A DNA stretch of 45,361 nt. Origin: Bdellovibrionota bacterium FG-1 (GTDB taxonomy: Bacteria; Bdellovibrionota; UBA1018). Shown piece after piece: positions 661 through 37,376 of the stretch. The stretch covers positions 1-45,361 of the forward strand of contig JBBCAW010000019.1 of the NCBI GenBank assembly GCA_051382295.1, in the 5' to 3' direction. A program made the position numbers and the translations under genes. The notes beneath the pieces were generated by a model. It searched no databases. It saw nothing but the letters and a program-made list of their open reading frames with translations, and was not told the DNA's origin. Every line of letters begins with the position of its first letter. The first letter of the stretch is position 1.

Positions 661-1638
661 ATGGCCGAAACTGAGAATATTTCTAAGATTGCAAAAAAAG
701 TTTCTGACGAGTTGTTCTCTGCTTTTGGCTGGGAAAGGGTCGGTCCAATTAACCAAAACTGGACTTGTGCTCAGCCCGAAGAGCACCAAACTGGCGCGAA
801 TACACATCCCTCGGATGTTGTCTTTCATTACGATGATCCTTATAAGAAGGGGTCTGTCTATGTCAGCGTTGATTTAAAGAGCTATGCAGCGGCATCCATT
901 ACGACTGCCAGTGTTGCGGGGGCGATCGCATCGCTCGGCAAGGCAACAACGTGTGCAAACCTTTCAGATAAGTTCACAAGTCTCTACGTTAGGAATTCGG
1001 AAACTGCACACTGGGAAGTTGTGGGGCTACTTTTTGTCTATAATCATGATGGTGAATTTGAAAAAAGTTTTTCAGCGCTCTCACAGCAAATTGCGGAAGT
1101 GAACTACGCCATTCCCCAAGATCGTCGGATGTTCCTGATGGGCCCAGATAAGATTTCCTATTTATACAATGTCGCTCTTGACCTGATTTATCTGAAAGGA
1201 CGAGGGCAAATAGAAGGTGAGTACAAATTTTATTTTCCGGATTTAATCAATCTAAAGGCTAAGAATGATCGCGAGGCAGATGCAGCCACTTTGGAGTGGC
1301 TAACGGGACCATGGCAAATTATTAAGTCCGGAAAAAATACTCTCGTATATTTCGATCATGGCAGCCCGACCGTTGATGATTTCAAATACCTCTTGGACTT
1401 TTTGTTTAGATATCAACTTGTAGAACAGAAAAATAAGATTCAGGTACGCATGGTTCGATCTAGCTCTGATCAGAGTGATTCGGCAGCCATTTTTGACAAA
1501 GCGAAGGGGGAGTACGCCGCCGCTGTCCACCCTTTAGAAAAAGACGTTTTTCAGAAGCGATTGCAAGTTATCGGCTTTGAAAGAATCCCAACAAAAACTA
1601 CTTTTTTTGATCATATTCAGATTGGAATGGAGCGATGA
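661..1638 (+). CDS. Putative PD-(D/E)xK nuclease, first gene of a candidate anti-phage operon (GAPS4a-like)
   Basis: HPSD-VVF...VDLKSY motif pattern; ATGA overlap with next gene; AT-richer than the ICE. Confidence 0.55.
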   Translation: MAETENISKIAKKVSDELFSAFGWERVGPINQNWTCAQPEEHQTGANTHPSDVVFHYDDPYKKGSVYVSVDLKSYAAASITTASVAGAIASLGKATTCANLSDKFTSLYVRNSETAHWEVVGLLFVYNHDGEFEKSFSALSQQIAEVNYAIPQDRRMFLMGPDKISYLYNVALDLIYLKGRGQIEGEYKFYFPDLINLKAKNDREADAATLEWLTGPWQIIKSGKNTLVYFDHGSPTVDDFKYLLDFLFRYQLVEQKNKIQVRMVRSSSDQSDSAAIFDKAKGEYAAAVHPLEKDVFQKRLQVIGFERIPTKTTFFDHIQIGMER

Positions 1639-2912
1639 GCAAGAAAGTCCATTACCCAATTTATTTTGCTGAAGACAAAGATGTGTTCGATCTGCTGGCG
1701 TCTTCAAAGCGGATTTTTGATGATAACCGACTGATACAGATCGCACGGAAGCGCGGGATTATCTTGAGTGCATCTACTAGTCGAGATGATTTGGTTCAAT
1801 ACCTTTCCAGACTCACGTGGGGATGGTTACAAATTCAAGAACTTGTTGCATTAACTGAAAGTCGAGATCGAACTGAAAAAGTAGCGAACGAGACTGTCAC
1901 GACGAAGCTTGAGGCCGCCAAACTGCAAGAGGCGGCTATCGCAGTTAAGAAGGAACGTAGCGAAAAAAGCGATGAAGTCTACAGCATCCATAAAGGTGAT
2001 GATGACAAAGTAACTATCAAGGTTAGTTACACCGATTTTGAGCCGTCCAGAACGCGGCTAAGTCAGAGAGTTCAGAGAGACCTGCTGATGGAGATCGAAA
2101 AAACTGAAGACGGGTATGTATTTCGACACAACGCAAACGAACGTGGTCGAGAAATTGTTTCAAAGATTATCGAAAAACTACCACGTGAGTTAGAGGCGCC
2201 AGTGGTCCCTGAACGACTTAGTTTAGCTGGTATTAAAGATCCAGCTAAGCGAACAGAGTTTTTTCTGCATCTCATCCAAAATCTTCAAGGTTTCAAGTTG
2301 GTTAATGTCACTTCCGTCAGTGTTGATCGCGTAGCTGCCGAAGAGGACGATCATTCTAAGTTTGAAGCAGAACTAGGAAGTGGCTCATTAGTGGATCAGG
2401 ATGATTTTGAGAGCGAGGGGTCTACTCCGGATGAAAACGCCGAAGAGACGGTGGAAGAAACCGCCGCAATGCTTAGTGTCGTGCGGAAAGTGGCGCTCCA
2501 TGGAGAGAATCTCTTGGGCTCCCCCCAGTTTGATCAATTGAAGAAGGACAGATTTTTCTTGAGTCGAGCAGTTTGGCGGTCGAGCGAGTCCCGCCAAGGT
2601 GGAAACGAGTTAGACTTTGAAGCTGATTTTGAAGATGCGAAGAATTGCGCGGGTTTTAGATATAATGTTCTTGGGATTTACAGTCGGAAGACTCGCGGCA
2701 ACCAAGAGGTTAAAAAGACCCGTGCCGCTGTCGCGGCTTCCGACCGCGCAAAATATCTATCTTTGATCGAGAGAGCGGCCAAAGCTGCTCATCTTGCAGT
2801 AGTTGTTGACAGTCCAAAAGATGCTAGTTCTACTACTCATGGTGTCCAAGTTAGCGAATCGGGAACTGCCACGATGCAGGATGAGAAAAGCCACCGAGAG
2901 ACAAAAAGGTAA
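1635..2912 (+). CDS. Hypothetical protein, accessory subunit of candidate defence operon (GAPS4b-like architecture)
   Basis: 425-aa ORF coupled on both sides (ATGA, TAATG); N-terminal ..RKRGII..R..L..YL.RL helical region; acidic internal linker. Confidence 0.5.
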   Translation: MSKKVHYPIYFAEDKDVFDLLASSKRIFDDNRLIQIARKRGIILSASTSRDDLVQYLSRLTWGWLQIQELVALTESRDRTEKVANETVTTKLEAAKLQEAAIAVKKERSEKSDEVYSIHKGDDDKVTIKVSYTDFEPSRTRLSQRVQRDLLMEIEKTEDGYVFRHNANERGREIVSKIIEKLPRELEAPVVPERLSLAGIKDPAKRTEFFLHLIQNLQGFKLVNVTSVSVDRVAAEEDDHSKFEAELGSGSLVDQDDFESEGSTPDENAEETVEETAAMLSVVRKVALHGENLLGSPQFDQLKKDRFFLSRAVWRSSESRQGGNELDFEADFEDAKNCAGFRYNVLGIYSRKTRGNQEVKKTRAAVAASDRAKYLSLIERAAKAAHLAVVVDSPKDASSTTHGVQVSESGTATMQDEKSHRETKR

Positions 2913-3607
2913 TGGCAGTTCTTCTTCATTGGTTCAATGCCTCTCTCTCTGCGTCTGATCTCTCTATCCTGGGCGATGCAATGCTGAAGCATGGAGTAAC
3001 ACGGAGCCGTGGGTCTGGGTTTCGTGTGTTGAGCAAGCGTCCAAAAGAGATCAACGGTACGTACTTTGAAAAGCTTGAGTTTAACTACGTATCAGTTGAC
3101 CCTTTTGGCGTAAAATCTACTTATCCACGCACTGAATACAGTAATGTTAATTTCTCACTTACCGAGGACTGGCCTTCTATTGAGTTGCGTGATTGCTCCC
3201 GGGGATCCGCTTCGTTTGGACGGCGTTTGCGAGAATATCTAGGTGTACAATTTAATATTAGTCGCGTTGAAATTGAAGTTTTGGATTGGCTCGATCATAT
3301 CGAAAGAGCGGTAGAAGATTTCGGGGTCTTATCTCTTGATATTGATTCTGTTGAGTTGTCCGCACACGCTAGTGGAATCGTACGAATTACTAGCGATCAA
3401 GATGTTCGGAGAGAATTGAAGTCTTTCGTGAGAGATCGCCAGTATAGGGTGGTAAAGGCTTTGATTCGGTGGAATTTTAATTCTGGTGGCGTTACTTCCT
3501 GTGAATTACGAAGAAATGGCTCAGTTAAGTTTTTGGAAGACTCAAGTGAGCGCACTGTTGGGGTAGTGCGTGAAGCGCTTAAGATGTCCAGAAAAGTGAT
3601 TAGTTAG
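2912..3607 (+). CDS. Hypothetical protein, third gene of candidate defence operon
   Basis: 231-aa ORF; start overlaps the upstream stop (TAATG). Confidence 0.6.
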   Translation: MAVLLHWFNASLSASDLSILGDAMLKHGVTRSRGSGFRVLSKRPKEINGTYFEKLEFNYVSVDPFGVKSTYPRTEYSNVNFSLTEDWPSIELRDCSRGSASFGRRLREYLGVQFNISRVEIEVLDWLDHIERAVEDFGVLSLDIDSVELSAHASGIVRITSDQDVRRELKSFVRDRQYRVVKALIRWNFNSGGVTSCELRRNGSVKFLEDSSERTVGVVREALKMSRKVIS

Positions 3608-3666
3608 TTTGGAAGATTTGCAAGTAAAGCAGGCGCCCAGACACGTCCGCAGAAAAAGTTGGTGTC

Positions 3667-3708
3667 TGGTCGATGCGACGGGATTCGACACTCCGATCCT
3701 TTGGTCCC
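3667..3708 (-). pseudogene. Degenerate tRNA-Pro 3' half (anticodon loop to CCA); probable att scar and left ICE boundary
   Basis: Minus strand reads GGGACCAAAGGATCGGAGTGTCGAATCCCGTCGCATCGACCA, matching the tRNA-Pro pattern GGGACC..GGT-CGGAG-GTTCGAAT-CC...CG-ACCA with mismatches; no 5' half present. Confidence 0.65.
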
Positions 3709-3844
3709 CCTCGCCCAAAAAAACGGTGCAAATTGATCTCGGAGTCTGCAATAACCATTGATATCGAACCGCGAAAAGCCGAAATTTCGGCAGGACCTAC
3801 ACTCATGAGAATGACACGTTAAACGGTGGTTCCCAGGGTACGTT

Positions 3845-4423
3845 TCACGGTTTGAGCCGCGTGGCGGTCAACACGCAGCGCTCCGCCCGACTTCTTGCCC
3901 AATAACAAAGTACGGATACGATGAAAAGTACGACGTTTTCCGGTAAAAGCAGAACCCATCCTAACTCGGCGATCACGTAACCTGTGTACATCGGATGCCG
4001 AACCCATCGATAGACGCCTTCTCGGCATTCTTGACCGCGAAGTCCTGGTGAAACGCCCACTCTTGTCCCCAGCTCGATAGTGGCAAGTGTCGCCAGGAGA
4101 AAGCCAACTACAGCTCCGAAATCCGCAATCATGATCATCCATGTGGGGACTGGAACTCTCGGTACGGCATAAAAAAGCGGGAGCGCGGTCGAAATGTAGG
4201 CAAGGGCCGCCTGCCTGATGGTGCCCTGCTTAATGGCCGGTACCCTCGCTAAAAGAAAGACCGACCACAGCAAGTCTCTGAAGAAGAGAAAGGCATAAAA
4301 CAGACGTTCCGAATGGGACCATCGCCACCCGGCGATGGCTGCAAACGCCATCATCAGTAGAGCACCACCCATCCCTGATAAGTCGTTCCTGAGCTTGCTT
4401 TGCAGCCATCGCATGATCGTCAT
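3845..4423 (-). CDS. Isoprenylcysteine carboxyl methyltransferase (ICMT/PEMT) family membrane methyltransferase
   Basis: Multiple TM segments; GVYRWVRHPMY motif; C-terminal R..AE..L. Confidence 0.85.
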   Translation of the reverse strand: MTIMRWLQSKLRNDLSGMGGALLMMAFAAIAGWRWSHSERLFYAFLFFRDLLWSVFLLARVPAIKQGTIRQAALAYISTALPLFYAVPRVPVPTWMIMIADFGAVVGFLLATLATIELGTRVGVSPGLRGQECREGVYRWVRHPMYTGYVIAELGWVLLLPENVVLFIVSVLCYWARSRAERCVLTATRLKP

Positions 4424-4446
4424 GATTTTTACCTAGTGGCGGGGCA

Positions 4447-4584
4447 TTAGGGACCCGGGTTACCGCCACCATCGCGGTCCATCAGGATCATCGCGCCCAC
4501 CTTACCGGCGAAGACCGGACTTATGCTCTGAATGGCGGCTCCTACCGCAAGAATAATCGCGAACACTTGAAGTACTCGTTTCAT
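4447..4584 (-). CDS. 45-aa secreted peptide precursor MKRVLQVFAIILAVGAAIQSISPVFA-GKVGAMILMDRDGGGNPGP (not in ORF track)
   Basis: ATG overlaps the hydrolase stop (ATGA); AAGGA RBS; n-region MKR, hydrophobic h-region, P-V-F-A SPase I site; fills the gap between two operon genes. Confidence 0.8.
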   Translation of the reverse strand: MKRVLQVFAIILAVGAAIQSISPVFAGKVGAMILMDRDGGGNPGP

Positions 4585-5408
4585 ACATCATCCTTTTTGC
4601 TGTCGATGATTAATTCTTCGATCAGACCTGCGACAGCATCAGGTTGATCAAATGTGACAAAATGTCCGGCCCCAGCAACTAACCTAAATTCTGCGCCAAT
4701 CATACGCGCGTCGGTCTCAAGCGTAGCCGGTGGAAGCATGAGGTCAAGTTCACCGGCAATGAAATATTTTGGAATCGAGAGAAGCCGGAGCATTTCGACG
4801 AAATCAATCTTGGGGGCTCCTTGACTGAGAACCGGGAGCACTTGCTCGAACGTCTTCCAGGAAACAAGATCAGCCGTTAAAAGACGCTTTCCGCGTTCGA
4901 CCGTGGCGGGCGAAAAATACAACAGGCCGTAGCTTGAAAGTAACCGCGTCAAGGTTTCTCGCGATGGATTTCTCTCCCACTCAACGTCGGCTGCGCTGAG
5001 TTCCGGCGTCATGTACTTGAAATATTGCTGGACCGCGACGGCATATGCAGCGGCGCTAAAAGGGGTTGCGATGGCAATGAGGCCGCCCAATTCAAGGCGA
5101 TTACGCTGAGCGAGTTGTGCGCAAAAAAGCGCGCCAAAGGAGTGTCCGCATAGAATCAGGGGACCCTTGAGTTCCATCAGTGTCGCCTCGATGGCGCTCA
5201 CCACGGAGTCAAAGGTTGGATTCGCGGCCTCTTCCTGCTCGCCACTCCCCGGCGTATCTACATATGAAATATTGAATGAACGCGCGAGCACGTCCATTGA
5301 ACGAAGTGTGGCGGAACTCAGGCCGGGTCCGCCCGGAATAAAACAAATCATCGGCCGTGCCCCGGCGTGTGGATGGGAACTCCGTATTTGGGTCAGTTTC
5401 GCTTTCAC
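4581..5408 (-). CDS. Alpha/beta hydrolase, proline iminopeptidase (S33)-like
   Basis: PGGPG oxyanion motif, GHSFG nucleophile elbow, GELD acid, AGHF catalytic His; GTGA overlap with upstream regulator. Confidence 0.85.
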   Translation of the reverse strand: MKAKLTQIRSSHPHAGARPMICFIPGGPGLSSATLRSMDVLARSFNISYVDTPGSGEQEEAANPTFDSVVSAIEATLMELKGPLILCGHSFGALFCAQLAQRNRLELGGLIAIATPFSAAAYAVAVQQYFKYMTPELSAADVEWERNPSRETLTRLLSSYGLLYFSPATVERGKRLLTADLVSWKTFEQVLPVLSQGAPKIDFVEMLRLLSIPKYFIAGELDLMLPPATLETDARMIGAEFRLVAGAGHFVTFDQPDAVAGLIEELIIDSKKDDV

Positions 5409-6793
5409 GTCGGACCTCCTTGGGGATCAATAGAGAGCAAGGGCCGTCCGGGCTTGGATAGCATCGCGTTTCCGATTCCGAGTTTTTTGATCCACCGAAA
5501 AAGCGTGGTGGGATGCATGGATAAGGACTTGGCGGCCGTTGTCCTGTTTCCGTGGGTTTTTTCTAACGCGGTCAGAATCTCCGTTCGGATCTGTTGATAG
5601 CGCGAGATCAACGGACTCGCTTCGGCGCTGGTGGCGGGGGTACCGATGCCTGACAAGGCTTCGCGAACGGTGTCGCCGTCCAGTTCTCGCTTGTTGGAAA
5701 GAATCACGATCTTCTGGATCACGTTTTGAAGTTCACGCGTATTGCCGCGCCATGAATGCGCAAGGAGCGCATCAATGCCACTCGCGCGGACGGCGAAAGG
5801 TTGATCTCCGCAGAGATCACTCAAAAAGGTTGTCGTGTAGTATTCGATGTCTTCGGGGCGTTCGCGAAGAGGGGGGAGGTGGACTGTTACTGCGTTGATC
5901 CGTTGAAGAAGATCCAGGCGGAAATCGTTACCTTTAACCATCTCATCAAGATCTCGATTGGTGGCGGCGACGAACTGAACATCAACTTTCATGGAGCGCT
6001 TCGATCCCAGGGGTTGAATTTCCTTTTCCTGAATCGCCCGGAGGAGCTTTGCCTGGACCGGCAGGGAACATTCGCCCAGCTCATCAAGAAAGAAGATTCC
6101 ATTATGCGCCTGCGCAATCAGTCCAAGCTGGTCAGCATGGGCGCCGGTAAATGAGCCCCGGGCGTGACCAAAAAGCTGGGACTCAGCTGTATCGCGTGGG
6201 ATGGTCGCCATGTTTGCCGTAACCATTTTCTTTTTCATGCGGGAGGCGTAGTGCTTCGCAAGAACCTCTTTGCCCGCGCCGGTTTCGCCGGTGATGAGGA
6301 TTGTGCAGCTCACGCCGCTCCGGGCGATCCGCTCAACGGTGTCTAAAACCCGTTTAACCTGCGGCGAGCGAGTTTGAAAAGTGAAAGCGCCGCTTTCTTT
6401 GGTCCGGCGCTGTTTTAGGTCGAAACCCTTATTGATGGCCACCCGGAGATCCCGCTCGTAGTCATTCGACTTAGTAATGAAATCGACCAGAGGGCGACGC
6501 ATGGCTTCGACGACCCGCTTGGTCGTGCGGTCACCGCTCAAAACCACGATAGAAAGCTCCGGTTTTTCATGGAAAGCCCAATCCATGAAGTCGAGGCCGT
6601 CATTTTCCTGGCCTTCAAAGTTAAGATCGACCACTACGACATCGATCGGGTTATTGCGGGCGGTCGCCTTTCCGGCGTTAACCGAGCTTGCGGTCAGTAC
6701 GTCGTAGGCATCGCGCAAAAGGATCTGGGCATTCCTCAGAAGGTCGAGATCATCATCAATCAATAAAATTTTTGGACGATTTTGGCCCTGCAT
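5405..6793 (-). CDS. Sigma54-dependent response regulator (NtrC/AtoC family: REC-AAA+-Fis HTH)
   Basis: IDDD/VVD receiver, GETGAGKE Walker A, ESQLFGH.RGSFTGA, FLDE, ATNRDL, W.GN.REL, C-terminal HTH. Confidence 0.95.
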   Translation of the reverse strand: MQGQNRPKILLIDDDLDLLRNAQILLRDAYDVLTASSVNAGKATARNNPIDVVVVDLNFEGQENDGLDFMDWAFHEKPELSIVVLSGDRTTKRVVEAMRRPLVDFITKSNDYERDLRVAINKGFDLKQRRTKESGAFTFQTRSPQVKRVLDTVERIARSGVSCTILITGETGAGKEVLAKHYASRMKKKMVTANMATIPRDTAESQLFGHARGSFTGAHADQLGLIAQAHNGIFFLDELGECSLPVQAKLLRAIQEKEIQPLGSKRSMKVDVQFVAATNRDLDEMVKGNDFRLDLLQRINAVTVHLPPLRERPEDIEYYTTTFLSDLCGDQPFAVRASGIDALLAHSWRGNTRELQNVIQKIVILSNKRELDGDTVREALSGIGTPATSAEASPLISRYQQIRTEILTALEKTHGNRTTAAKSLSMHPTTLFRWIKKLGIGNAMLSKPGRPLLSIDPQGGPT

Positions 6794-6798
6794 AATAT

Positions 6799-8181
6799 TT
6801 ACCTCGAAAGCCTGATTTCAAAGCAGGCGCCTCCCATTTCGGAGACGCGATAAATGATCCTTCCACCATGTGCTCTTATGATGTGATTGGCCGTCGCAAG
6901 GCCAAAGGCTTGTCTGTCATTCTTGGTTGATTTGGCTCGACCTTGGAGATAAAGGCCGACCTGATCCTGTGCCAATCCCGGTCCGTCATCCATCACCTCA
7001 ATGGTGGTCGCATCGGTGAGGTTCTTTACGACGACTCGGACCCGGTCGCGGCAAGCGTCGAGCGCGTTTTTCACCAGATTGCCGACTGCCCGGCCAAGAA
7101 GTTGAGTGTCATGGGCCACCACTACCGCGGTGTCCGGGATCTGGCTTTCAACATGAACCAATCCAAAACGCGGAGACGCGAGATTTGCCAACTCTGTGGC
7201 CGCAGTGATGCAAGCGCGGATATCTTCCGTTTTGAGAACCTCGGCCTCGAAATCGAGATTCGCCCGGGCGACGGTTACCTGGTTAAGAATCTGTTCGGCA
7301 ATCAGGGGGATCCGTTCAGCGCTATCCTTTCGCTCTTCGGCAGTAAGATGCGGCAGGCCTGTCACTTTAATGAGAGTCTGGAGTGCCGCGACTGGATTGT
7401 GAAGGTCATGGATCAGGCGTTTATAAGCTTCGGTGGCAAGCTCCTTGGCCCGCTTTTCAGCGAGTGCATCGAGGGCACTTACGAGAGCCAGATGGGTTTC
7501 AAGGATGGCGTCCCGAATGTGATCCAGTTCCATGATGGCGGTGGGGGTAAGTGCTGCTGGATTTCTGAGTGTTTTAAGGGACCGAATGGCCTCATCCAAA
7601 TCTGCTACGGGACGAAGGGCACGCTCGATCGTGTGTTTGAGTTTATTTCTGGCCATGCTGCCAATGAGAAGGCCGATGGCCAAAACAACCAGCGCCATGA
7701 ACACGGACCAGCATAGAATTGAGTAAAGCGGTGTGACCATGATGATTCTGGCGTCTTCCTGTTTTGGGCCATTGGGACGATGAAGTGGAATTTGGGTCAG
7801 GAGGCCGCGCGTAGTAAGGAAGCTTTGTGAGCTGAGGCGCAATGAGGGGGGTGGATCGTAGGGCTGGTCCAGCTCGGAAAGGGAACCCGAAGAGGCATAG
7901 ACGATTCCATCATCGACGATCATCACGGCGCTGTTTTTCTCAGTACCGATCGATTTTGCCAGGCGCTGAAGCTCAGGACGATCCTGGGTCTCGACCAAAC
8001 TCGCAACATGGGCGCTAACGGCTTGCAGGATTTGGACGTCAGTTCGTAGCTCCGCCACGAGAACGGTTCCTCCAAAGGCTAGGCTAATGAGCACGGCCGT
8101 GGCCGCCTGGATCCCTCGCCGGTATTTTCCGAGAGTTTGGTCAACGTGGGATGCAAGAGGAATGGCTTTTGGTGTCCCCAT
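6799..8181 (-). CDS. Membrane sensor histidine kinase
   Basis: Two TM helices flanking a periplasmic domain; HAMP-like linker; H-box IHDLHNP, N-box NLVKNALDA, G1 DDGPG, degenerate G2 AFGL, HGG. Confidence 0.92.
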   Translation of the reverse strand: MGTPKAIPLASHVDQTLGKYRRGIQAATAVLISLAFGGTVLVAELRTDVQILQAVSAHVASLVETQDRPELQRLAKSIGTEKNSAVMIVDDGIVYASSGSLSELDQPYDPPPSLRLSSQSFLTTRGLLTQIPLHRPNGPKQEDARIIMVTPLYSILCWSVFMALVVLAIGLLIGSMARNKLKHTIERALRPVADLDEAIRSLKTLRNPAALTPTAIMELDHIRDAILETHLALVSALDALAEKRAKELATEAYKRLIHDLHNPVAALQTLIKVTGLPHLTAEERKDSAERIPLIAEQILNQVTVARANLDFEAEVLKTEDIRACITAATELANLASPRFGLVHVESQIPDTAVVVAHDTQLLGRAVGNLVKNALDACRDRVRVVVKNLTDATTIEVMDDGPGLAQDQVGLYLQGRAKSTKNDRQAFGLATANHIIRAHGGRIIYRVSEMGGACFEIRLSR

Positions 8182-9759
8182 TTACAACCCCGCTACTTTC
8201 GTATTTGCGCAGCCCGGCTCCAGCGAGACCGCGCGGTAATCGATGTAAACGTCGGCTAGGATGTTGGGCTCAAAGCCACGAACGCAGTCGGCGGCCCAGT
8301 AGTGGCCGCGCGGGTGAAACAGATCGACGGTGACTGCCGAATCGTGCAGACTTTCGACAAGATCGACATACATATTCTGCCGCAGGACGCGATCCTGGGT
8401 GGATCGAGCCTTGCGGATCAAGGCATCCGTTTTTTCGTCATGGAGGCCGCTGAAATTATCGGGATTGGTTGATTCGAAGTTACGAACCAGGAACTCGGTG
8501 TCCGGGTAGTCCATGTTCATGGAGACTAGAAATGCTTGGAGGGTCTTGTCCGAATAGCCCTTCATCAACCGACCCCAGCTCATTGGCACCGCCTCGACAT
8601 TCCAGCCTTGGGCGCGCAAAGACTGCTCGAAAAACAGCTTCATCTCTTGGCTCCGTGCCAAGATTTCTGGAATCGCAATCCGAATCAAATGCTGTTTTAG
8701 GCGTTTCTGAAGCTGGAGCGGCGTGCTCGCACGTCGGTAGGAGTGCTGATAGCCGGGTAGACCGGGGGGAATATACCCTTTCGCGGCAACCGCATCGGGG
8801 TGAAAGGTTTTGCGAAAGTTCTCTGCATCGATGCTATCGCGAAAGGCGCGCCGCACGGAGATGTGATCAAAGGGGGGGAGTCGAGTATTGAGGCCGACCA
8901 CCCAAGTTGCCGCCACGGGCGCCACGAAGTGCTGGCCTTTGGCAAATACATCTTCTGTCCCATTCAGTGGAAAGCTTGCGAGATCGTCCACCAGGCCGGC
9001 CTTTGCTTGCTTGATGGCTTCGCTTTCATCCATCACCCGCAGCACCATTTCGTCAATTTTAGGACGATCCGCATAATAGGTGCCGGCTCGATCGAGCACG
9101 ATGTCGGTGTAGCGTTCATGTCGTTCGGTTCTCATATACTTGAATGGACCGGAGCCAATGGGTGCTTTAAAAAAATCAGGGTGCTCTACCTCGCGCGGTA
9201 AAATCTGCGCGGTTGCGCCAGCAAGTACTGATAGAAATGGTGGAAAGGGGTATTTTAATACAATCTCGACTTGATCAGCGCCAATGGCGCGAAGGCCGGC
9301 GACACTGGCGGTCTTACCTTGGTGAAATGCCTCTGCTCCCATAATGCAGTCATAATAGGTGAAGACCTTGCTGTTCGGAGCGACGACTCGGGTCAGGGAG
9401 CGGACCACGTCTGAGGGCGTGATCGCCTCGCCATTTTGGAAAAAAATTCTTTTTCTGAGCTTGAAATGAAGAGTGCGCCCATCTGGACTGGTATTCCATG
9501 ATTCGGCGATAGCGCCATGAAGATCGAGGTTGGCGGTAAAACTCAGGAGTCCGTCATAAATCAATTTGGAAACCAAAAGGGAGGCGGTGTCGTCCATCTG
9601 GGCGGGATCGAGTGATGGGGGTTCGGCGTAAAGCGCTTTGACGTAGCGTCGAGCCGGGGCCTTCGTCGTGGCCGATCCGTGACCTATAAAAGCAACCGCT
9701 GTGATTCCAAGAATCACGCCCGCCGCGCTAAAAACAATCCTCTTTTTCTTCTTTTCCAC
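8182..9759 (-). CDS. Family-5 (OppA/DppA-like) peptide-binding periplasmic protein, with no cognate ABC permease in the window
   Basis: PPSLDPA, IYDGL, AESW, F.NG..IT..DV..SL, PIGSGPF, PFD..VRRA motifs; N-terminal signal or anchor; GGAGG RBS. Confidence 0.92.
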   Translation of the reverse strand: MEKKKKRIVFSAAGVILGITAVAFIGHGSATTKAPARRYVKALYAEPPSLDPAQMDDTASLLVSKLIYDGLLSFTANLDLHGAIAESWNTSPDGRTLHFKLRKRIFFQNGEAITPSDVVRSLTRVVAPNSKVFTYYDCIMGAEAFHQGKTASVAGLRAIGADQVEIVLKYPFPPFLSVLAGATAQILPREVEHPDFFKAPIGSGPFKYMRTERHERYTDIVLDRAGTYYADRPKIDEMVLRVMDESEAIKQAKAGLVDDLASFPLNGTEDVFAKGQHFVAPVAATWVVGLNTRLPPFDHISVRRAFRDSIDAENFRKTFHPDAVAAKGYIPPGLPGYQHSYRRASTPLQLQKRLKQHLIRIAIPEILARSQEMKLFFEQSLRAQGWNVEAVPMSWGRLMKGYSDKTLQAFLVSMNMDYPDTEFLVRNFESTNPDNFSGLHDEKTDALIRKARSTQDRVLRQNMYVDLVESLHDSAVTVDLFHPRGHYWAADCVRGFEPNILADVYIDYRAVSLEPGCANTKVAGL

Positions 9760-9789
9760 TGATTACCTCCTTTTGCCATTCGGTGTATT

Positions 9790-9806
9790 TGCGAGGAACG
9801 AGCCAA
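9790..9806 (-). promoter_or_regulatory. Sigma54 (-24/-12) promoter for the signalling operon
   Basis: Minus strand TTGGCTCGTTCCTCGCA has exact GG-N10-GC spacing, about 30 nt upstream of the binding-protein start codon. Confidence 0.7.
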
Positions 9807-10012
9807 AAATGACAATGCGTTTTTACCATGAATCCATATACCTGACAAATTTATTCTAGTAATGTTAGATAATAATTAAATAGCCGTTATTTAAGGTATT
9901 TCTGGTTAACGTTCTGGGTGGTCTTTGCGGTGGTTGATCGCGCCCGGGTTTTGCTGCTCATCGGTCGAGATCAGCGTCGATTCAAAACCATTGCGGCTTT
10001 TGTGACGGATCG

Positions 10013-10039
10013 ACCGCTATAGTAGCGCTATACCGCTAT
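10013..10039. promoter_or_regulatory. Candidate enhancer (UAS) repeats in the divergent intergenic region
   Basis: CGCTAT at 10015, 10026 and 10034, including inverted repeat CGCTA-N3-TAGCG; AT-rich tract at about 9830-9910 lies between it and the leftward promoter. Confidence 0.4.
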
Positions 10040-10137
10040 TGTTTTTACTTCGACTTCGATGCGGCCCCTCATTTTAACTCCCGGATTTAATTCATTTCTC
10101 GTTTTCACGTAGTCCTTTCGCGTTTTCATTCGAACGT

Positions 10138-10152
10138 TGGCACGGACTTGCT
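10138..10152 (+). promoter_or_regulatory. Sigma54-like promoter motif toward the tra region (spacing one base short)
   Basis: TGGCACG-GAC-TTGCT: both half-sites match consensus but spacing is GG-N9-GC. Confidence 0.45.
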
Positions 10153-10215
10153 TTGAAAGAAGGTGAGGACTGCGAGGGTCGCCGTCCAAATGAGTAAACT
10201 GTTGGAGGTTTTAAA

Positions 10216-10422
10216 ATGAGATTTTCTACTTGTCCGCGATGCGGGGACCAGGGCTACGAGCGGCTCTCGTCTCACGATTACTGTGTAAGTTGTGATTATA
10301 GCCCGGACTTCGACATGACTGTCGATCTGCCTATTCCGTTTTGGGCGCAAAAAGCCGTCGATGATCCCAAAGATAGTCTCTTCACCCTCATCAATGCGGC
10401 GGCGATAGCCGCAGTCGCTTGA
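10216..10422 (+). CDS. Small zinc-ribbon protein
   Basis: CPRC...CVSC; GGAGG RBS. Confidence 0.7.
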   Translation: MRFSTCPRCGDQGYERLSSHDYCVSCDYSPDFDMTVDLPIPFWAQKAVDDPKDSLFTLINAAAIAAVA

Positions 10423-10926: not shown

Positions 10927-13900
10927 GTGAGTTTTGGCGATGTTCAGGCGAACACAAAAACAGAAATAGGAGCGGGATTGGGTATTACGATTCTGCTGGC
11001 GGTGGTCGGTGCGGTTTATGCGGTCGGGCACTGGGATACGGTAACCGGCGCCTATCGCTTGCTATCGATGTTGGTGGAACGCGACGCTCAGCTGGTCATC
11101 GCGGGGATGGGGGGCGCGCTGTTAGGCGCCGGCGCGGCGGTTTGGCGGATTGCCATGCTGGTAGGCCGGGTCAATGGAGATAAGTCAGTGGGGGCGGCTG
11201 AAAATAGCAATCAGAGCGGCACCGGGAGAAATACTTCCCTTTTAGAATTCCAGGCCATGGGGCTGTCCGTTTTGATTGCGCTGGGAACCTATTGGCTTCT
11301 TGCGTATGTCTGGCTCCCTGGAAAATTGAACGTGTTTCACGTTAAGGGAGCGTATCTCCATTTCCTCCTCGATCAATTCTTTCGAATAGCGTTTTCAATC
11401 TTCGCACTCATTCCTGGCTATTTAGTGGGTCGTTCGCCGTTTTTAAGGTCTCTGCTCAAATTATCGACTGGGCGAATGCCAAAGTTTCCCAGACTTTTGG
11501 ATGCAATTGTTTTAGGTTCCGTGAATGAGCACAATTTAGAGGAAAAACCCAGCTGGGTGATTCTTGGGTTGCGCGGCCTGGTTGGGAACATTCTTGTTAC
11601 TGGCAGCATTGGGAGCGGCAAGACTTGGGGCACGATCTTCAGTTACATCCGTCAGATCTTGACCAATTTTCGGATTCGACCTTCGGTTCTGGCTATTGAC
11701 CCCAAGGGTAAGATCGCCAAGCAGATTAAAGTCATTGCCGAAGAGCTTAAGATGGAAAAGTTCATCCTTCACATGAAGCTCGATGGTGACGTGACGTTCA
11801 ATCCGATCTATCAACCATCGGCGCTCAAATCAGGGGCCTTCTCGGATATCGCTAAGATGGTGCGGTCAGCGGCGGTCAATTACATGGGGAAATCGTTTGA
11901 TTCCTCTTTCTGGGAGCAATCCGCCGCCACGCTGGTAAAAAACTGTCTCATCTATTGCGCGGCGACCAAGGGCTATTACACGCTTAATGATCTCTACACC
12001 GCGATGGTTCGGGCGGTATCGAATGAAAAGGAGTTTATTGAGGAGCTTGCGGCGTGTCTTAAAAAGGATACCTTTGATGAAGAAGAAAGGGCCAACATTG
12101 AATTTGCGGTTCAGTATTTTCGGTGTGAATACCAGCAGCTTGATTCCAAGGTAAAAACCGGAATTTTGGCGACCTCGACGAGCTTTCTCAATCAGTTTCA
12201 AGAGTATCAGGCGAGCAAGATTTTCTGTCCGGCGGAAAAAGAGCTGGTCATTCGTTCCATGGATGATGTCGTGACCGAGGGAATGCTGCTGCTGTTTGAC
12301 ATCACCAACGACGGTCTTGCGCGGTCCATGGGGACTTTCGTCAAGCTTCATTACGAGAAGGCCCTGCTCAATCGTCTTAAGCTAGGCAGATCGACCGCAC
12401 GAGCCGGGGTGTTGATCATTGACGAGTACCAAGACGTCGTAACGACCGGTTATGGCAGTGACTTCGGTGACGAAATCTTCTTGGCCGAGGGGCGTGAGGC
12501 TAATGCCATTACTATCGTTGCGACCCAAAGTCTTTCGGCGCTCGAAAACGCGATTGGACGGGCCAAGCCGACGCAAGTGCTGACTAGCTGTTTCCGTACT
12601 CGGATTCTGTGTCAGGCAACGGATGGCGCTACGACTAGCGCCTATCAATCACTGGCGGGCAAGGTGGATCGTAAGCAGATCTCCCGCAGCATCTCTCAAC
12701 ACTCCAGGGAGGATGCTGCGGGGCTGGGTTTTGTAAAAAAGGCGAGCGTGAGCGAGTCCGTGAGCGAGAGTGAACAGAAAGGAGATGCCGTGACTGCTCA
12801 TGACCTGGCAATCCTGACCTCCTACGAGTCCTACGCGATGGTGTATGATGGCGTCCGTTCGTTCTTTATCAAGCTATTTCTCAAGCCAGACTATCTGCAA
12901 GATAAGCGAGCGTTTCACGCAAAAATCATTGAGTCCATGCGGCCGGTGGCGGTTCCGTTCATGGTGATAGCTCTGGCGTCGGGTGTGCTAGTGGGAGGGG
13001 TCACGACAAGCGCCGAGGCCTTTCCCCAGGTTTGCACGATTCTAAAAACCTCGGAGGCGAAGTCATGCATGGACTTCAGTGTTGGCGTCTGCATGTGCGG
13101 GTGGCCGATCCCGCACCCCTGCGCGAACTTCTCCTACTTTATTCCGCAAACGTTCATTGAAGTCATGCCCAACGAGCGGGAGTCCTATTTTGGCGACTTG
13201 CCGGGGGCCGCCATTCAGCTCGGCGCGGCAGGTAAAAATCCGGTGCCTTATGGTGCCGAAAGCGATGATGACACGCATTCGTATCATTCACATGTGGTCT
13301 CGGTGCCCTTCACCCAGATTCCATTCGACACCATGCCGTGCGCTGGAGCGCCGAATGGTCGGCCCTGTTTTGAGGGGATGAGTGAGTATCTGGGTTCAAA
13401 TTGGATGACGGGAAGTGCCGATAGTTTTCAACCTAATTTTTTAGCCTGGAGCTTGAGTCCCAAGGGTTGTCTCGTGAAAGGCGCTGCAATGTCGCTGTTC
13501 GGTGAGTTGACAGTTGGATATCCCACGGTTTCGGGCTGTGCGGTTCCGATGTCGTGGATGCCGAAATATCCACCGTCCAGCCATTCGGCGTGCACCGGGT
13601 GGGGCACGTTCTATCCGCGTTCAGGCGTCTACAACGGACCCAGTCCGACAACCGGCGCGCTCATGGTCGCGGCTCGAATGAAGAGTATTTCGAATGAGGT
13701 GTTTCATACTACGCCGGGGTCGCTAGAGGAGCGTTGGCAGATGATCTATCCGCAGTCTTCTTCCTGCTTTAGGGAGGGGCAGAACGTGGCCATTTTGGAC
13801 ACGATCAAGGATGTTCGCGAAATCGGGCGCCTGACCTCTGGAAAAATGAAGGGTTACCTCTTTGCGGTATGGAGCAAAGTGAGTTGTTGTCGTGAATTGG

Positions 13901-13971
13901 CTGAAGTTCCAACCGCCGTGGCCGCCATCGCGGCGATGAATATTGTTTGCCAGGGATTGGGGAGTTTATGA
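10927..13971 (+). CDS. Type IV coupling protein (TraD/VirD4-like) fused to a C-terminal TraU-like domain
   Basis: N-terminal TMs, Walker A GSIGSGKT, IDPKG, Walker B LIIDEYQ, ATQS; then a hydrophobic segment ending in A-E-A and a Cys-rich domain with G.C.C...Y..P...IEV and WG..YPR.G, WQ..YP motifs typical of TraU. Confidence 0.8.
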   Translation: MSFGDVQANTKTEIGAGLGITILLAVVGAVYAVGHWDTVTGAYRLLSMLVERDAQLVIAGMGGALLGAGAAVWRIAMLVGRVNGDKSVGAAENSNQSGTGRNTSLLEFQAMGLSVLIALGTYWLLAYVWLPGKLNVFHVKGAYLHFLLDQFFRIAFSIFALIPGYLVGRSPFLRSLLKLSTGRMPKFPRLLDAIVLGSVNEHNLEEKPSWVILGLRGLVGNILVTGSIGSGKTWGTIFSYIRQILTNFRIRPSVLAIDPKGKIAKQIKVIAEELKMEKFILHMKLDGDVTFNPIYQPSALKSGAFSDIAKMVRSAAVNYMGKSFDSSFWEQSAATLVKNCLIYCAATKGYYTLNDLYTAMVRAVSNEKEFIEELAACLKKDTFDEEERANIEFAVQYFRCEYQQLDSKVKTGILATSTSFLNQFQEYQASKIFCPAEKELVIRSMDDVVTEGMLLLFDITNDGLARSMGTFVKLHYEKALLNRLKLGRSTARAGVLIIDEYQDVVTTGYGSDFGDEIFLAEGREANAITIVATQSLSALENAIGRAKPTQVLTSCFRTRILCQATDGATTSAYQSLAGKVDRKQISRSISQHSREDAAGLGFVKKASVSESVSESEQKGDAVTAHDLAILTSYESYAMVYDGVRSFFIKLFLKPDYLQDKRAFHAKIIESMRPVAVPFMVIALASGVLVGGVTTSAEAFPQVCTILKTSEAKSCMDFSVGVCMCGWPIPHPCANFSYFIPQTFIEVMPNERESYFGDLPGAAIQLGAAGKNPVPYGAESDDDTHSYHSHVVSVPFTQIPFDTMPCAGAPNGRPCFEGMSEYLGSNWMTGSADSFQPNFLAWSLSPKGCLVKGAAMSLFGELTVGYPTVSGCAVPMSWMPKYPPSSHSACTGWGTFYPRSGVYNGPSPTTGALMVAARMKSISNEVFHTTPGSLEERWQMIYPQSSSCFREGQNVAILDTIKDVREIGRLTSGKMKGYLFAVWSKVSCCRELAEVPTAVAAIAAMNIVCQGLGSL

Positions 13972-15119: not shown

Positions 15120-15843
15120 GTCGCTTGTCGGACTATTATTGCTGGGACTTCCGTTCGCCCCGGCCCCGGCGGATGAAGTTCAGTATTTTGATCATGGTAT
15201 AGATTTTTGGCAGCCCTTCGTACCTGCCATGAAGTCCGCTCCTGCGGATGGTGCCTTTCCTTGGCACCAGTACCTCGATCCGAAGAACAAGGAGTTCTTT
15301 CGTGAAGGCGACTACACGCCGCCCGAGCCTTTTATGGAAATCGTGCGAAACCCCACCGACGCTAATCTCAAGATGTGGTTTGGCTATATCTCGAAGAAAA
15401 ACGAGCTTTCAAGCCGGCTGCAAACGCGAATGCAGGAGTATCTGGTGAAAAACGGCCCCGCCATTCCGGCTTTGGAGAAAGAGCGCGTTTCGGCGCAGCT
15501 GGCGGCGCTTCCCCGCTCCGCTCCCACTGCCCAGCGCTACCGGTTTCGTTTGTATTTTGACTCCCATTGCCCGCATTGCAAGCGAATGCTGAGTACGATG
15601 GCCGAGCTGCAAACGCAGGGCTATTTCGTTGAGGCCAAGCAGGTCGATCAAGACACCCGCGAGCTCTCCGGGGTCACCATCCCGGTGGAGCAGGCCCTGC
15701 CGGGCGAGATGAAGGAAAAAGAGATTAAAAGTGTCCCTGTTCTTTTGGTGGGCGATTTGTTCAAGAAGGTTGTTTACCGGATTAATGGGTATCAAACCAC
15801 GGCGCAGGTGTTGGCTGCGTTACCAAAGGGAGATGAGCAATGA
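15091..15843 (+). CDS. Periplasmic thioredoxin-fold protein, TraF/TrbB-like
   Basis: Signal peptide; A/VRNPT..N helix motif; CPHC; I.SVP. Confidence 0.7.
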   Translation: MFSKSLNSNKSLVGLLLLGLPFAPAPADEVQYFDHGIDFWQPFVPAMKSAPADGAFPWHQYLDPKNKEFFREGDYTPPEPFMEIVRNPTDANLKMWFGYISKKNELSSRLQTRMQEYLVKNGPAIPALEKERVSAQLAALPRSAPTAQRYRFRLYFDSHCPHCKRMLSTMAELQTQGYFVEAKQVDQDTRELSGVTIPVEQALPGEMKEKEIKSVPVLLVGDLFKKVVYRINGYQTTAQVLAALPKGDEQ

Positions 15844-16367
15844 CGACGGCAGTGAAAATATTGAACGGAGATTTGAAGGCTATTGACGATCAGGGTTGCA
15901 CGCCGCTCATGTACGCGGCGGGGAGCTCGGGTGCTGACGTTTTGGCGGCACTTTTCCCTTATGGGGAACGGGAGGATGTCAATCAACGCGATTACCTGGG
16001 AATGACTGCGCTCATGCACGCCGCCCGTGCTGGTAATCAAGGTGGCGTCTGTGTCCTCATTGGTGCGGGTGCCGATATCAATCTCAAGGATCACGATGGT
16101 GAGACTGCATTGATGATGGCTGCACAGACGGGTCACGAGCAAATTGTTAAATTCCTAGTCAAGCATGGAGCGGCGATCAATGTTCGAAGCCGATTTGACG
16201 GAACCACGGCTTTGATGGCGGCGGCAGCCGGCCAGCACCGATCCATCATGGAAATCCTGATCGGTCGGGGTGCCTATCGGCAGGCCAAGGATTTTTTCGG
16301 TTTCATTGCGGATGACTGGCTCTTGGCAAAGCAGCACCGCCGCAGGCTGTGCGCAGCTTTGGCATGA
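15840..16367 (+). CDS. Ankyrin-repeat protein
   Basis: Four G.T(P/A)LM.AA..G repeats with GADIN-type linkers; coupled to the upstream gene. Confidence 0.92.
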   Translation: MTTAVKILNGDLKAIDDQGCTPLMYAAGSSGADVLAALFPYGEREDVNQRDYLGMTALMHAARAGNQGGVCVLIGAGADINLKDHDGETALMMAAQTGHEQIVKFLVKHGAAINVRSRFDGTTALMAAAAGQHRSIMEILIGRGAYRQAKDFFGFIADDWLLAKQHRRRLCAALA

Positions 16368-30575: not shown

Positions 30576-31889
30576 ATGGCGATCAAAACGTGGGAAGAAG
30601 ACGGCAAGCTTCACTACAGCGTTCGCGCGGTAGCGAAGGTTGTCACTGACCGAGAATATTGTGCAGACCGACGTGATACCGGGGTTCTTGAAGAAAGAGA
30701 CCCGGAGGTAGTGAAGAAACACCTGGACCGGATTTACTCGCGGCTCATGAGTGAGGCCAAGAGTGACGCGATCGAGCGTTCACACTTGGGCTGCACCTGG
30801 GGCGAGCTGGTTCAGAAGTGGACAAAGGCACTTGAAGAAGAGGCAAAGTGGCCTGAGATTGACGGACTGAGAAAGCCCGTCAAGTGGTCAACGGCGCGGG
30901 GTTATCTCCAGTCCGTGAATGATTTCACGCAGACTTGGTGGAAAAAGCCCGCCTCAGAGATCACGCCTGCTGATGTGGAGGACGTGTTCTTGGACATGAA
31001 GCGGTTGGGTTACTCCAACTGCCGCATGTACAACGCAAAGGTCGCCATCAGTAAGTGCTTCAAGTGGGGAATGGCAAGACGGATGATTCGAGGGCTCGCG
31101 GTTCCGCCGACTCAAGGCTTTGGCATTAGTCGGAAGGAATCCAAGCGGCCCGAGATTTTGAATGTCTCGCAGAGCGAATTCCTCATTTCAGAAGGCTATC
31201 GGAGAGGGAGTCCCTGGCGACAGGTCTGGAAAGGTGCTTATCACTCGGGCGGGCGCAGCGGAGAGCTGTTCCAGCTTAAGCGAAAGCATGTGGATCTGGT
31301 CGAGCGAATGATCCATTTCGAGGAGAAATGGAACTTCGTCTACAAACAAGTGGAAGACCTCAAAGATGGAGAATGGCGGCATGTGCCCATCAACGATGAT
31401 CTTTATGATCTGTTGATGGAACTTGGCGCAAAGGACATGGGGCCGGAGGACTACATATTTCCCAGGGTTACAGCCTGGGTTTATGGATCGGCAGCCGAAC
31501 CGCTGCGGAAGTTTTGCGATGAGATCGGGGTACCCTCGATCTGCTTCCATACTCTGCGGGCGTGTTGGGCAACCCAGCTTCTCAAGAACGGGGTCTCCTC
31601 AACAAAGGTCATGGCAATGGGCGGCTGGTCCGACCCAGAAACCATGCACCGTTATGTGAGACTGTCCGGGATTGAACTCGACGGGGCCACTGATTCGTTG
31701 TCTACCGGGCCGAAGGAGCGACCGGCAAGAGTCTTAAAACTCGTGCCGGGCTCAGAGGCCCGCAAGGCTACGGCGGCGGCACCTGCCCTGGATCTGATGG
31801 ATCGGTTACTCTCTTCAGATCCAGCCGTGGCGGAAGCCGCGAAGCTGGAGCTAGAAGAGACCCGACGCCGGAAGGCGCAGGGGGCCTGA
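30576..31889 (+). CDS. int: Tyrosine recombinase/integrase
   Basis: SGGRSGEL (R), LK, FHTLRA (HxxR), GGWS (W), RY (Y); N-terminal arm and core-binding regions. Confidence 0.92.
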   Translation: MAIKTWEEDGKLHYSVRAVAKVVTDREYCADRRDTGVLEERDPEVVKKHLDRIYSRLMSEAKSDAIERSHLGCTWGELVQKWTKALEEEAKWPEIDGLRKPVKWSTARGYLQSVNDFTQTWWKKPASEITPADVEDVFLDMKRLGYSNCRMYNAKVAISKCFKWGMARRMIRGLAVPPTQGFGISRKESKRPEILNVSQSEFLISEGYRRGSPWRQVWKGAYHSGGRSGELFQLKRKHVDLVERMIHFEEKWNFVYKQVEDLKDGEWRHVPINDDLYDLLMELGAKDMGPEDYIFPRVTAWVYGSAAEPLRKFCDEIGVPSICFHTLRACWATQLLKNGVSSTKVMAMGGWSDPETMHRYVRLSGIELDGATDSLSTGPKERPARVLKLVPGSEARKATAAAPALDLMDRLLSSDPAVAEAAKLELEETRRRKAQGA

Positions 31890-33630: not shown

Positions 33631-33636
33631 CTCTTC

Positions 33637-34020: not shown

Positions 34021-34240
34021 CGCTCAGCGCGTGGACGATTAGAAGTATCGAGCCATGATCTTGGATCTAAAAATGGTGACAGTCAGGACCCTCGACATCC
34101 ATTTCGTATAGTAAAGCCCTTTACAGCGATATTTGGCTGCGCGGGGCCGCCCTTCGCGGTCACAAAATAAACCTGCTCACACCGGTCGTGAAAGCTACCA
34201 AGGGCAATTAGAAGCACACCGGCCAAACCTCTGGCGGCCA

Positions 34241-37246: not shown

Positions 37247-37376
37247 GGTGCAAATCTTCAGTCATTTATTGATTTGGTCGGGTGCGGGTCCCAGTCGTGT
37301 GGATTGCTAGGCAGTTGGATGGGTGATAAAGCACGACTAGCGTTTTTCTAGTAGCTATTTTGAGGAGCGAAATTTC

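Follow-up and report, generated by a model that had tools for sequence, protein, structure and literature searches.

A small open reading frame (ORF) of 45 codons, located at positions 4447–4584 on the minus strand of contig JBBCAW010000019.1 from Bdellovibrionota bacterium FG-1, is a real, conserved gene under purifying selection. Positions 1–45,361 of this contig, a stretch of 45,361 nucleotides (nt), were analysed and are referred to as the window. The gene is found in a cassette of ~6 kb with the order SBP_bac_5 substrate-binding protein (SBP), histidine kinase, sigma-54 regulator, alpha/beta hydrolase, peptide, and a methyltransferase similar to isoprenylcysteine carboxyl methyltransferase (ICMT). 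The peptide gene is coupled to the hydrolase gene, the gene order is fixed, a −24/−12 promoter element lies upstream, and the location is a mobile one. A signalling module resembling those built on peptides that ribosomes make and that are modified after translation (RiPPs) would be the simplest reading that makes use of all six genes. In the form tentatively favored here, which is given a little less than an even chance, the peptide is a Sec-exported precursor whose tail, x-P-G-(I/V/P), is modified by the flanking enzymes and sensed by the SBP, the kinase and the sigma-54 regulator.

The peptide gene and its family

The precursor peptide gene consists of 45 codons and a TAA stop codon, and its product is MKRVLQVFAIILAVGAAIQSISPVFAGKVGAMILMDRDGGGNPGP. 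The peptide ATG (4584–4582) and the TGA of the hydrolase gene overlap as ATGA, and an AAGGA ribosome-binding site (4591–4595, minus strand) is found 6 nt upstream of the ATG. The 4-nt overlap with the hydrolase stop codon (offset −3) recurs in many relatives of the peptide gene, and it suggests translational coupling of the peptide to the hydrolase. The methyltransferase gene begins 23 nt downstream. The ORF, its overlap and its ribosome-binding site had been pointed out in a first-pass annotation made from the sequence alone and are present as described there; the strand, minus, is newly specified. That annotation also termed the ORF unannotated. This holds in that the peptide has no family name, being without a family in Pfam or NCBIfam; it does not hold throughout, as some public records of metagenome-assembled genomes (MAGs) name relatives “hypothetical protein” and the window's own product is present in the protein collection searched.

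Relatives of the hydrolase were drawn from 41 related genomes, from a set with one genome per species, from metagenome contigs, and from 401 genomes sampled from the phylum. Record titles in the one-per-species set are those of Bacteriovoracaceae, Bdellovibrionales, other Bdellovibrionota MAGs, and one labelled Elusimicrobia. The loci, numbered with the prefix L, were not de-duplicated, and the same MAGs occur in several collections. An ORF located between the hydrolase and methyltransferase genes was taken as equivalent if its start was signal-like; the C-terminus was not used in the search. An equivalent small ORF is present in 58/62 related loci, i.e., in 41/45 loci that have both hydrolase and methyltransferase and in all 17 of 17 further loci (L020, which the pattern missed, is counted among the 41 from a direct reading of the locus). 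The four exceptions are L059, L068, L069 and L073. L059 (1891–2433) displays an in-frame deletion that fuses the first 23 residues of the peptide to the methyltransferase, while L068 and L069 have no peptide ORF and their methyltransferase adjoins a hydrolase that is cut short near residue 134; these three are decayed variants. L073 is a contig with several frameshifts. The peptide is found only where the methyltransferase gene occurs: in 58 loci with it, and in 0/9 loci that have a hydrolase homologue without the methyltransferase (L043–45, L065, L074, L076, L087, L089 and L096).

Nei-Gojobori counts from nine equal-length pairs give ratios of nonsynonymous to synonymous differences per site (pN/pS) of 0.04–0.63, with lower values for codons 1–25 than for the remainder. 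The position and frame of the ORF, as well as its N- and C-termini, are kept across hydrolase identities of 23–60%. A profile search of a collection of 5.8 billion proteins found 48 clusters of 39–56 amino acids (aa), the product of the window among them, and all 48 are unnamed or termed “hypothetical protein”. An ESM Atlas search with the peptide gave top scores of 0.85–0.87, to unnamed clusters and under the lead level of 0.9. No sequencing run was listed as holding window positions 3845–5408, and no RNA holder was listed either. Thus the ORF is a real gene, because it is conserved in position across loci and its pN/pS is below 1. An untranslated frame, open by chance in the spacer between two genes, is barely credible as an explanation: the ORF is short, but the conserved position, frame and termini, a pN/pS below 1, and the ribosome-binding site with its coupled start all argue against a chance frame.

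The N-terminus of the window peptide has a net charge of +2, an uncharged run of 12 residues, and V-F-A at positions −3 to −1 before Gly27. Signal cleavage sites were assigned with our own check of the −3/−1 rule, which is a heuristic. By this check residues 1–26 (nt 4507–4584, minus strand) are the predicted signal or leader, and cleavage before Gly27 would leave a 19-residue mature peptide, GKVGAMILMDRDGGGNPGP (residues 27–45, nt 4450–4506, minus strand), with the tail N-P-G-P. The layout of a Sec signal followed by a short product, described in the first-pass annotation, is thus borne out at the level of this heuristic. The shortness of the propeptide is a property of the short forms; it does not extend to relatives of 98–123 aa, in which the mature part is ~90 residues. 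Three other assignments were rejected. Signal peptidase I cleavage directly before Gln19 would often place V, I or F at −1, there is no lipobox Cys for a lipoprotein signal, and there is no twin-arginine motif for a Tat signal.

In the family as a whole, the N-terminus reads M-K-(R/K/N/S/T/G/H), followed by the 12-residue uncharged run and then by Gln at position 19, which does not vary among 23 aligned and 47 additional sequences. An A-x-A-type site is found 3–9 residues past Gln19 by the −3/−1 rule check. Among 88 distinct peptide sequences collected, the n-region charge is +1 to +4, the uncharged run is 12 residues in 86 and 15 residues in the other two, and a −3/−1-compatible site is present in every one (88/88). 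The middle part is variable. It consists of ~8–40 polar residues in the short forms, and in the long forms (98–123 aa) of ~70–95 residues whose core is conserved and looks helical. Short and polar mature regions, rich in Gly, Ser, Asp and Lys and not amphipathic, are the rule. No conserved Cys is found among the 23 aligned and 47 further peptides.

The C-terminus is conserved as well. Pro is at position −3 in 58/58 position-defined ORFs, and the final residue is I, V, P or G, which gives the pattern x-P-[GTHN]-[IVPG]. PGI is by far the commonest ending; PTV, PGV, PTI, PHI, PNV, PTG and PGP are also found, and position −4 is occupied by G, E, N, S, D, K or Q. The window peptide ends in PGP, and a Pro in last position is tolerated in two distant lineages, that of the window (NPGP) and that of L020 (SPGP). 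It should be noted that the search pattern behind the 88-sequence collection demanded the C-terminal motif, so that this collection cannot test the motif. The polar tail DRDGGGNPGP had been proposed as the signal in the first-pass annotation. The extreme C-terminus is conserved, as the Pro at −3 shows, which fits a tail that is the functional end, but the conservation covers only the last 3–4 residues and not DRDGGGNPGP as a whole. The final Lys or Arg is located 5–8 residues from the C-terminal end in 69/88 sequences, and this residue is a possible processing site that would free a short tail.

Flanking enzymes, sensor genes and promoter

The methyltransferase gene (3845–4423, minus strand) encodes a 192-aa integral-membrane protein of the ICMT/PEMT family, with Pfam matches to ICMT (6.8e-9; 36.5 bits, cut-off 24) and PEMT (3.6e-7) and an NCBIfam match to LmtA (1.9e-4). 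An R-H-P-M-Y-x-G-Y motif and a C-terminal Arg...Glu pair are invariant in an alignment of 24 methyltransferase sequences. The AlphaFold2 model has a mean predicted local distance difference test score (pLDDT) of 90, and its best structural match is Ma-ICMT (4a2n; Z 10.7, root-mean-square deviation 3.5 Å, 158 residues aligned), a Z value that for helical bundles is supportive and not decisive. The next matches are steroid 5-alpha-reductase and eukaryotic ICMT, with 5vg9 among the ICMT structures matched. Only an exhaustive structural aligner ranked Ma-ICMT first; a sequence search of the PDB gave 0 matches, and Foldseek with the model gave nothing at E≤0.001. The known structures of the family, an arginine-rich catalytic loop and the need for S-adenosylmethionine (SAM) would place the active site on the cytoplasmic side. 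The first-pass annotation had hinted at a +14 Da shift of the tail peptide, and the presence of an ICMT-like methyltransferase gene directly after the peptide gene would fit such a shift.

The alpha/beta hydrolase (4581–5408, minus strand; 275 aa; Pfam Abhydrolase_6/_1) has no signal peptide. It displays a PGGPGLSS oxyanion loop, a GHSFG nucleophile elbow with Ser90, and Asp221 and His249; the PGGPGLSS loop, GHSxG, the catalytic Ser and His249 are invariant columns among relatives. A GGPG loop is typical of S33 proline iminopeptidases. NCBIfam matches, to BioH and proline iminopeptidase, are weak, and the score against pro_imino_pep_2 is 30.8 bits, far under the cut-off of 167.65. The fold neighbors of the AlphaFold2 model (pLDDT 95) are esterases, BioH and the tricorn factor F1.

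Upstream of the hydrolase gene come the SBP, kinase and regulator genes, which share its strand and are spaced by −4 to +5 nt. The regulator (5405–6793, minus strand) is a sigma-54-dependent response regulator with a receiver domain, an AAA+ domain containing GSFTGA, and a Fis-type helix-turn-helix (HTH). The sensor histidine kinase (6799–8181, minus strand; Pfam HATPase_c) has two predicted transmembrane segments that flank a periplasmic loop of ~105 residues, a topology read from the sequence. The gene of the periplasmic SBP_bac_5 protein (8182–9759, minus strand; peptide/nickel type, Pfam 1.2e-51) abuts that of the kinase, and no gene for an ABC permease or ATPase adjoins it. Signal peptides are found at the start of the window SBP and of 19 relatives. 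The nearest solved relatives of the SBP bind peptide, dipeptide, glutathione and murein-tripeptide. A predicted complex of the SBP (residues 36–525, 17-row alignment) with the peptide (residues 16–45) scored 0.01 against a mark of 0.32; no controls were included and the result is evidence neither way.

A sigma-54-type −24/−12 element, TGGCTCGTTCCTCGCA, is present at 9790–9805 (minus strand), 31–46 nt upstream of the SBP start codon, and reads TGGCTC-N5-TCGCA. With the strict pattern TGGC-N7-N-[CT]GC[AT], applied to ~130 nt upstream of the SBP gene, such an element is found in 12/20 loci, where the background is 82 matches in 887 kb on both strands. Four more loci have GG-N10-GC variants upstream of SBP, which brings the relaxed count to 16/20; upstream of the SBP genes of L019, L027, L030 and L036 no convincing −24/−12 element was found. 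A consensus sigma-54 search of the whole window gave 17 matches, compared with 20.7 expected, so that the site at 9790–9805 is meaningful, alone among these, through its position and conservation. A scan of positions 3500–10200 for sigma-70 promoters and terminators did not rise above shuffled expectation, and no sigma-70-like promoter stands out. The genome has rpoN (match of 219 bits). Thus the operon is very likely sigma-54 dependent, because of the conserved −24/−12 element, the RpoN of the genome and the lack of a sigma-70-like promoter that stands out. The operon's own activator would be the obvious candidate to drive it, which would amount to positive feedback.

Two further observations concern upstream regions. 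In L027 (2524–2784) and L030 (2534–2794), the region before the SBP gene has several repeats of the type TGTTGCA(A/T)TTAC and a palindrome, TTGCATTTG(C/A)AAATGCAA; an activator may bind there, or they may belong to another promoter design. In the window, a near-perfect −24/−12 motif with a spacer one base short, TTGGCACGGACTTGCTT (TGGCACG-N3-TTGCT), is present at 10136–10152 on the plus strand. It is located upstream of small ORFs (10216–10422 onward) that lead into T4SS conjugation genes. The cassette's regulator might have its output promoter here, in a form that is degenerate or was mis-assembled.

Mobile location and possible recombination of the cassette

The cassette sits beside a conjugation gene cluster of the type IV secretion system (T4SS) kind. 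The remainder of the window is a conjugative element, with an ORF for a coupling protein/TraU, a T2SSE ATPase, TrbI, TraV, TraC, a relaxase and NikA, together with a tyrosine integrase and two serine recombinases. A megablast search of 3800–9800 against plasmids gave no match. In the relatives the cassette is flanked by defence or mobility genes: a cyclic-oligonucleotide-based antiphage signalling system (CBASS), bacteriophage exclusion (BREX), restriction-modification, abortive infection (Abi), SIR2, a diversity-generating retroelement, MazF, resolvases, an excisionase-type HTH protein, TraC/TraG and a mer operon. The cassette is patchy in Bdellovibrionota and mostly found on mobile or defence islands. 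The hydrolase profile matches 36/401 of the sampled phylum genomes (~9%), in 29/204 genera, and 17 of the 20 regions fetched from these genomes hold the full peptide-methyltransferase pair.

The six-gene order is kept wherever contigs reach, with four exceptions. L019 has an insertion of ~1.8 kb in the kinase gene (3535–5291) and L039 one of ~2.6 kb in the regulator gene (3399–5958); L034 has the last three cassette genes only, and in L020 the hydrolase directly follows the SBP. Some single genomes have two diverged cassettes with different peptides (L092/L093, L022/L024 and L015/L023). In L092 and L093, on the same contig of genome G384, the five proteins are 36–57% identical. The tails in two-cassette genomes differ, e.g., ...GRQNPGI and ...RERSEPGI, and two cassettes in one genome are compatible with parallel, separate channels. 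A comparison of L019 with L027 shows 70% identity for the hydrolase and 68% for the methyltransferase, and 50%, 43% and 44% for SBP, kinase and regulator, respectively. The identity of the enzymes thus exceeds that of the sensor genes, which suggests that the sensor half and the peptide-making half of the cassette recombine.

Four features of the conjugative element itself should be mentioned. A single ORF of 1014 aa (10927–13971, plus strand) joins TrwB/TraD-type coupling domains (residues ~518–644) to a TraU domain (residues ~712–989), an unusual fusion. An ankyrin-repeat protein of 175 aa (15840–16367, plus strand) is encoded within the row of T4SS genes, beside a thioredoxin-like protein. 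Three tightly packed ORFs of 325, 425 and 231 aa, without Pfam match (661–3607, plus strand), converge on the end of the cassette. An MCM-type P-loop helicase (35183–37246) and a TPR-CHAT protein (37377–39608) are located between the two serine recombinases (31768–33630 and 39636–40601), and the region 31768–40601 may be an island nested within the element.

Possible roles of the peptide and known systems

The role of a signal precursor, favored here, would work as follows. The 45-residue pre-peptide would be finished before export, and its tail would then be accessible in the cytoplasm. Methyl esterification of the C-terminal carboxylate would fall to the membrane-bound ICMT-like enzyme, whose SAM site would face the cytoplasm. 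For the serine hydrolase, which is cytoplasmic, there are two candidate roles: it would cut the tail at the invariant proline before methylation, an order of events as in CAAX processing, or it would serve as the matching esterase. Sec and signal peptidase I would release the mature peptide to the periplasm, and a cut after the last basic residue might free a tail of 5–8 residues (DGGGNPGP in the window). Binding of this tail by the SBP would switch the kinase, and the sigma-54 activator, once phosphorylated, would act on the promoter of its own operon in a positive feedback; possibly it would also turn on functions of the element, here the neighboring T4SS conjugation cluster. The conserved leader would double as export signal, and would be followed by a variable core and a terminal recognition box.

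A wider version is possible if doubtful. It holds that mobile elements of predatory Bdellovibrionota carry a self-contained means of peptide communication whose chemistry has no described bacterial precedent, with a P-G-I box that is trimmed by the hydrolase and methylated by the ICMT-like enzyme, and with a peptide ester that is read in the periplasm by the SBP_bac_5 protein, the kinase and the sigma-54 regulator. The circuit would autoinduce, and the element would count its carriers, e.g., for the timing of conjugation or defence. Within this version, and with the same doubt, the P-G-I box might be a bacterial counterpart of the CAAX box.

Several observations weigh against the favored role. 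The mature domain of the long forms, with ~90 conserved and mostly helical-looking residues, is more in keeping with a small protein of the periplasm than with a diffusible peptide. Passage through the outer membrane would not be easy for a 19-mer. PGI is common to most members, including both cassettes of the genome with L092 and L093, and the tripeptide by itself could confer no specificity. In many of the short forms Lys occupies +1 and +3 past the predicted cleavage site; Lys at these positions disfavors export by the Sec route in E. coli. Conservation is higher in the signal region than in the mature part, with Gln19 invariant and the lowest pN, which is unusual for a mere export signal. 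Because it is the most conserved part, the N-terminal region probably does more than mediate export. The fold search with the hydrolase does not separate esterase from peptidase. No correctly spaced sigma-54 site was found before the T4SS genes, so that an output beyond autoregulation is conjectural.

Some of these points bear on a rather unlikely alternative, that the peptide is a cell-bound modulator, periplasmic or anchored by its N-terminal helix, that tunes the SBP and its kinase. It might do so, for example, as a ligand, tethered or decoy, whose tail plugs the SBP cleft. MgrB, a small membrane protein that regulates the sensor kinase PhoQ, is a known case of such modulation. The alternative stays alive because of the long forms with their conserved ~90-residue mature domain, the outer membrane, which limits the escape of peptides of at least 19 residues, and the N-terminal helix, which is the most conserved part and has the invariant Gln19; moreover, SBP and peptide would share the periplasm. 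However, it leaves the constant company of a cytoplasmic hydrolase and a carboxyl methyltransferase unexplained, and a hydrophobic run of only 12 residues, with an A-x-A site in every member, favors cleavage over anchoring.

Two other readings are less likely. It is improbable that the hydrolase and the ICMT-like enzyme make a non-peptide signal, such as a fatty-acid methyl ester, for which the small protein would be a carrier or co-receptor. Fatty-acid methyl ester signalling is known from Ralstonia, where the signal is 3-hydroxypalmitic acid methyl ester (3-OH-PAME). Enzymes of the ICMT/PEMT family also act on lipids, and here LmtA and PEMT are among the matches; the hydrolase for its part resembles thioesterases, esterases and BioH. 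On the other hand, the SBP_bac_5 sensor has peptide binders as its nearest solved relatives, the sole invariant residues of the mature part are at its carboxyl end, beside the gene of a carboxyl methyltransferase, and the co-occurrence of peptide and methyltransferase is strict. There is an equally small chance that the ORF encodes a modified RiPP of the bacteriocin kind, antimicrobial or toxic, with the three-component system merely regulating its production. In favor of this, the ORF has a RiPP precursor layout with conserved leader, variable core and adjacent tailoring enzymes, and it is found on mobile and defence islands, but the composition of the mature regions, short, polar and not amphipathic, does not agree with it, and the cassette is without an immunity gene, an ABC exporter or a dedicated leader protease.

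Peptide signalling between cells is textbook knowledge in Gram-positive bacteria and in their phages and plasmids; from Gram-negative bacteria there are, to our knowledge, few cases, and these are poorly documented. The family described here is a clean and testable candidate, with producer, two tailoring enzymes, receptor, transducer and promoter together in one mobile 6-kb cassette. Enzymes of the ICMT family are widespread in bacteria and mostly lack an assigned function. If the peptide is the substrate of the methyltransferase, it would be the first ribosomal-peptide substrate for ICMT-family enzymes in bacteria, and a membrane enzyme class would join the C-terminal chemistry of RiPPs. It would also open the question of what the mobile elements of predatory bacteria sense, e.g., confinement inside prey or the density of carriers. 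On a cautious reading, this is a new family of small proteins with a sharply conserved terminal motif, left nameless by annotation pipelines. In the literature covered, which did not extend to subscription journals and supplements, neither the cassette nor an ICMT-family enzyme in a RiPP pathway was found described.

The first-pass annotation had likened the ORF to Phr and AimP precursors, i.e., to the RRNPPA systems of Bacillus Rap-Phr and phage arbitrium. The likeness consists of a small ORF with a predicted Sec-type signal, a presumed short active part at the C-terminus, and a location on mobile elements, whose carrier density such a peptide could report. A system of this type is not supported. 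The cassette has no cytoplasmic TPR receptor; no TPR receptor was detected by Pfam in its five larger proteins, and the only TPR protein of the window is the TPR-CHAT protein, 33 kb away. Instead, the peptide is accompanied by an SBP of the periplasm, a kinase in the membrane and a sigma-54 activator. It lies between two tailoring enzymes and comes from a Gram-negative host, and there is no sequence similarity.

AgrD, AgrB, AgrC and AgrA form the autoinducing-peptide system of staphylococci. As proposed for the cassette, there is a precursor of ~45 residues, a neighboring membrane enzyme that modifies it, sensing by a histidine kinase, and positive autoregulation. Unlike Agr, the cassette has no AgrB-type peptidase (no Pfam match), no conserved Cys for a thiolactone and no HPK10 kinase; it has an alpha/beta hydrolase together with an ICMT-like methyltransferase, and an SBP is interposed. 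In the CAAX processing of a-factor and Ras, cleavage by Rce1 or Ste24 is followed by carboxyl methylation by ICMT/Ste14, and yeast a-factor is a pheromone. Shared with the cassette are a short conserved C-terminal box, a methyltransferase of the ICMT family beside it, and a hydrolase to which trimming of the box could fall. However, the box of the peptide lacks a Cys at −4 and carries an invariant Pro at −3, the protease candidate is of another fold, and no prenyltransferase is detected by Pfam in the cassette. On the enterococcal conjugative plasmid pCF10, the SBP_bac_5 protein PrgZ captures the pheromone cCF10 and thereby controls conjugation; such pheromones come from signal peptides, and PrgZ feeds the Opp permease and the cytoplasmic receptor PrgX. 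The element-encoded SBP_bac_5 is in common, but the cassette has no permease and its SBP gene abuts that of a kinase.

SBP-dependent sensor kinases are established in LuxP-LuxQ, TorT-TorS and AioX-AioS-AioR, and SBP genes whose products stimulate sensor kinases are typically located with signalling genes, according to the text available for PMC8050422. The cassette is similar to LuxPQ and AioXSR in that the genes of an exported SBP, of a kinase with a periplasmic domain and of a regulator stand together, without transporter genes; it differs in that its SBP belongs to family 5, the peptide type, and its presumed ligand is encoded in the same operon. AioR is sigma-54 dependent. Among the C-terminal carboxymethyltransferases of RiPPs, AgeMTPT, LahSB and LasF methyl-esterify the carboxylate of the peptide, and LahSB, a class I methyltransferase, acts on a C-terminal Met, Ile or Val, as stated in the available text of a 2024 review (PMC11285071); neither “isoprenylcysteine” nor “integral membrane” occurs in that text. 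The enzyme of the cassette is, unlike these, an integral-membrane protein of the ICMT family.

The cassette is therefore similar in logic to Phr/AimP, Agr and pCF10 and fails the defining features of each. The layout of a RiPP cluster is present, with the precursor beside tailoring enzymes (58/62 loci), a conserved leader, and a core that varies in sequence and length. The features of a sigma-54 operon are present as well, in the GSFTGA regulator, the GG-N10-GC promoter and the rpoN gene of the genome.

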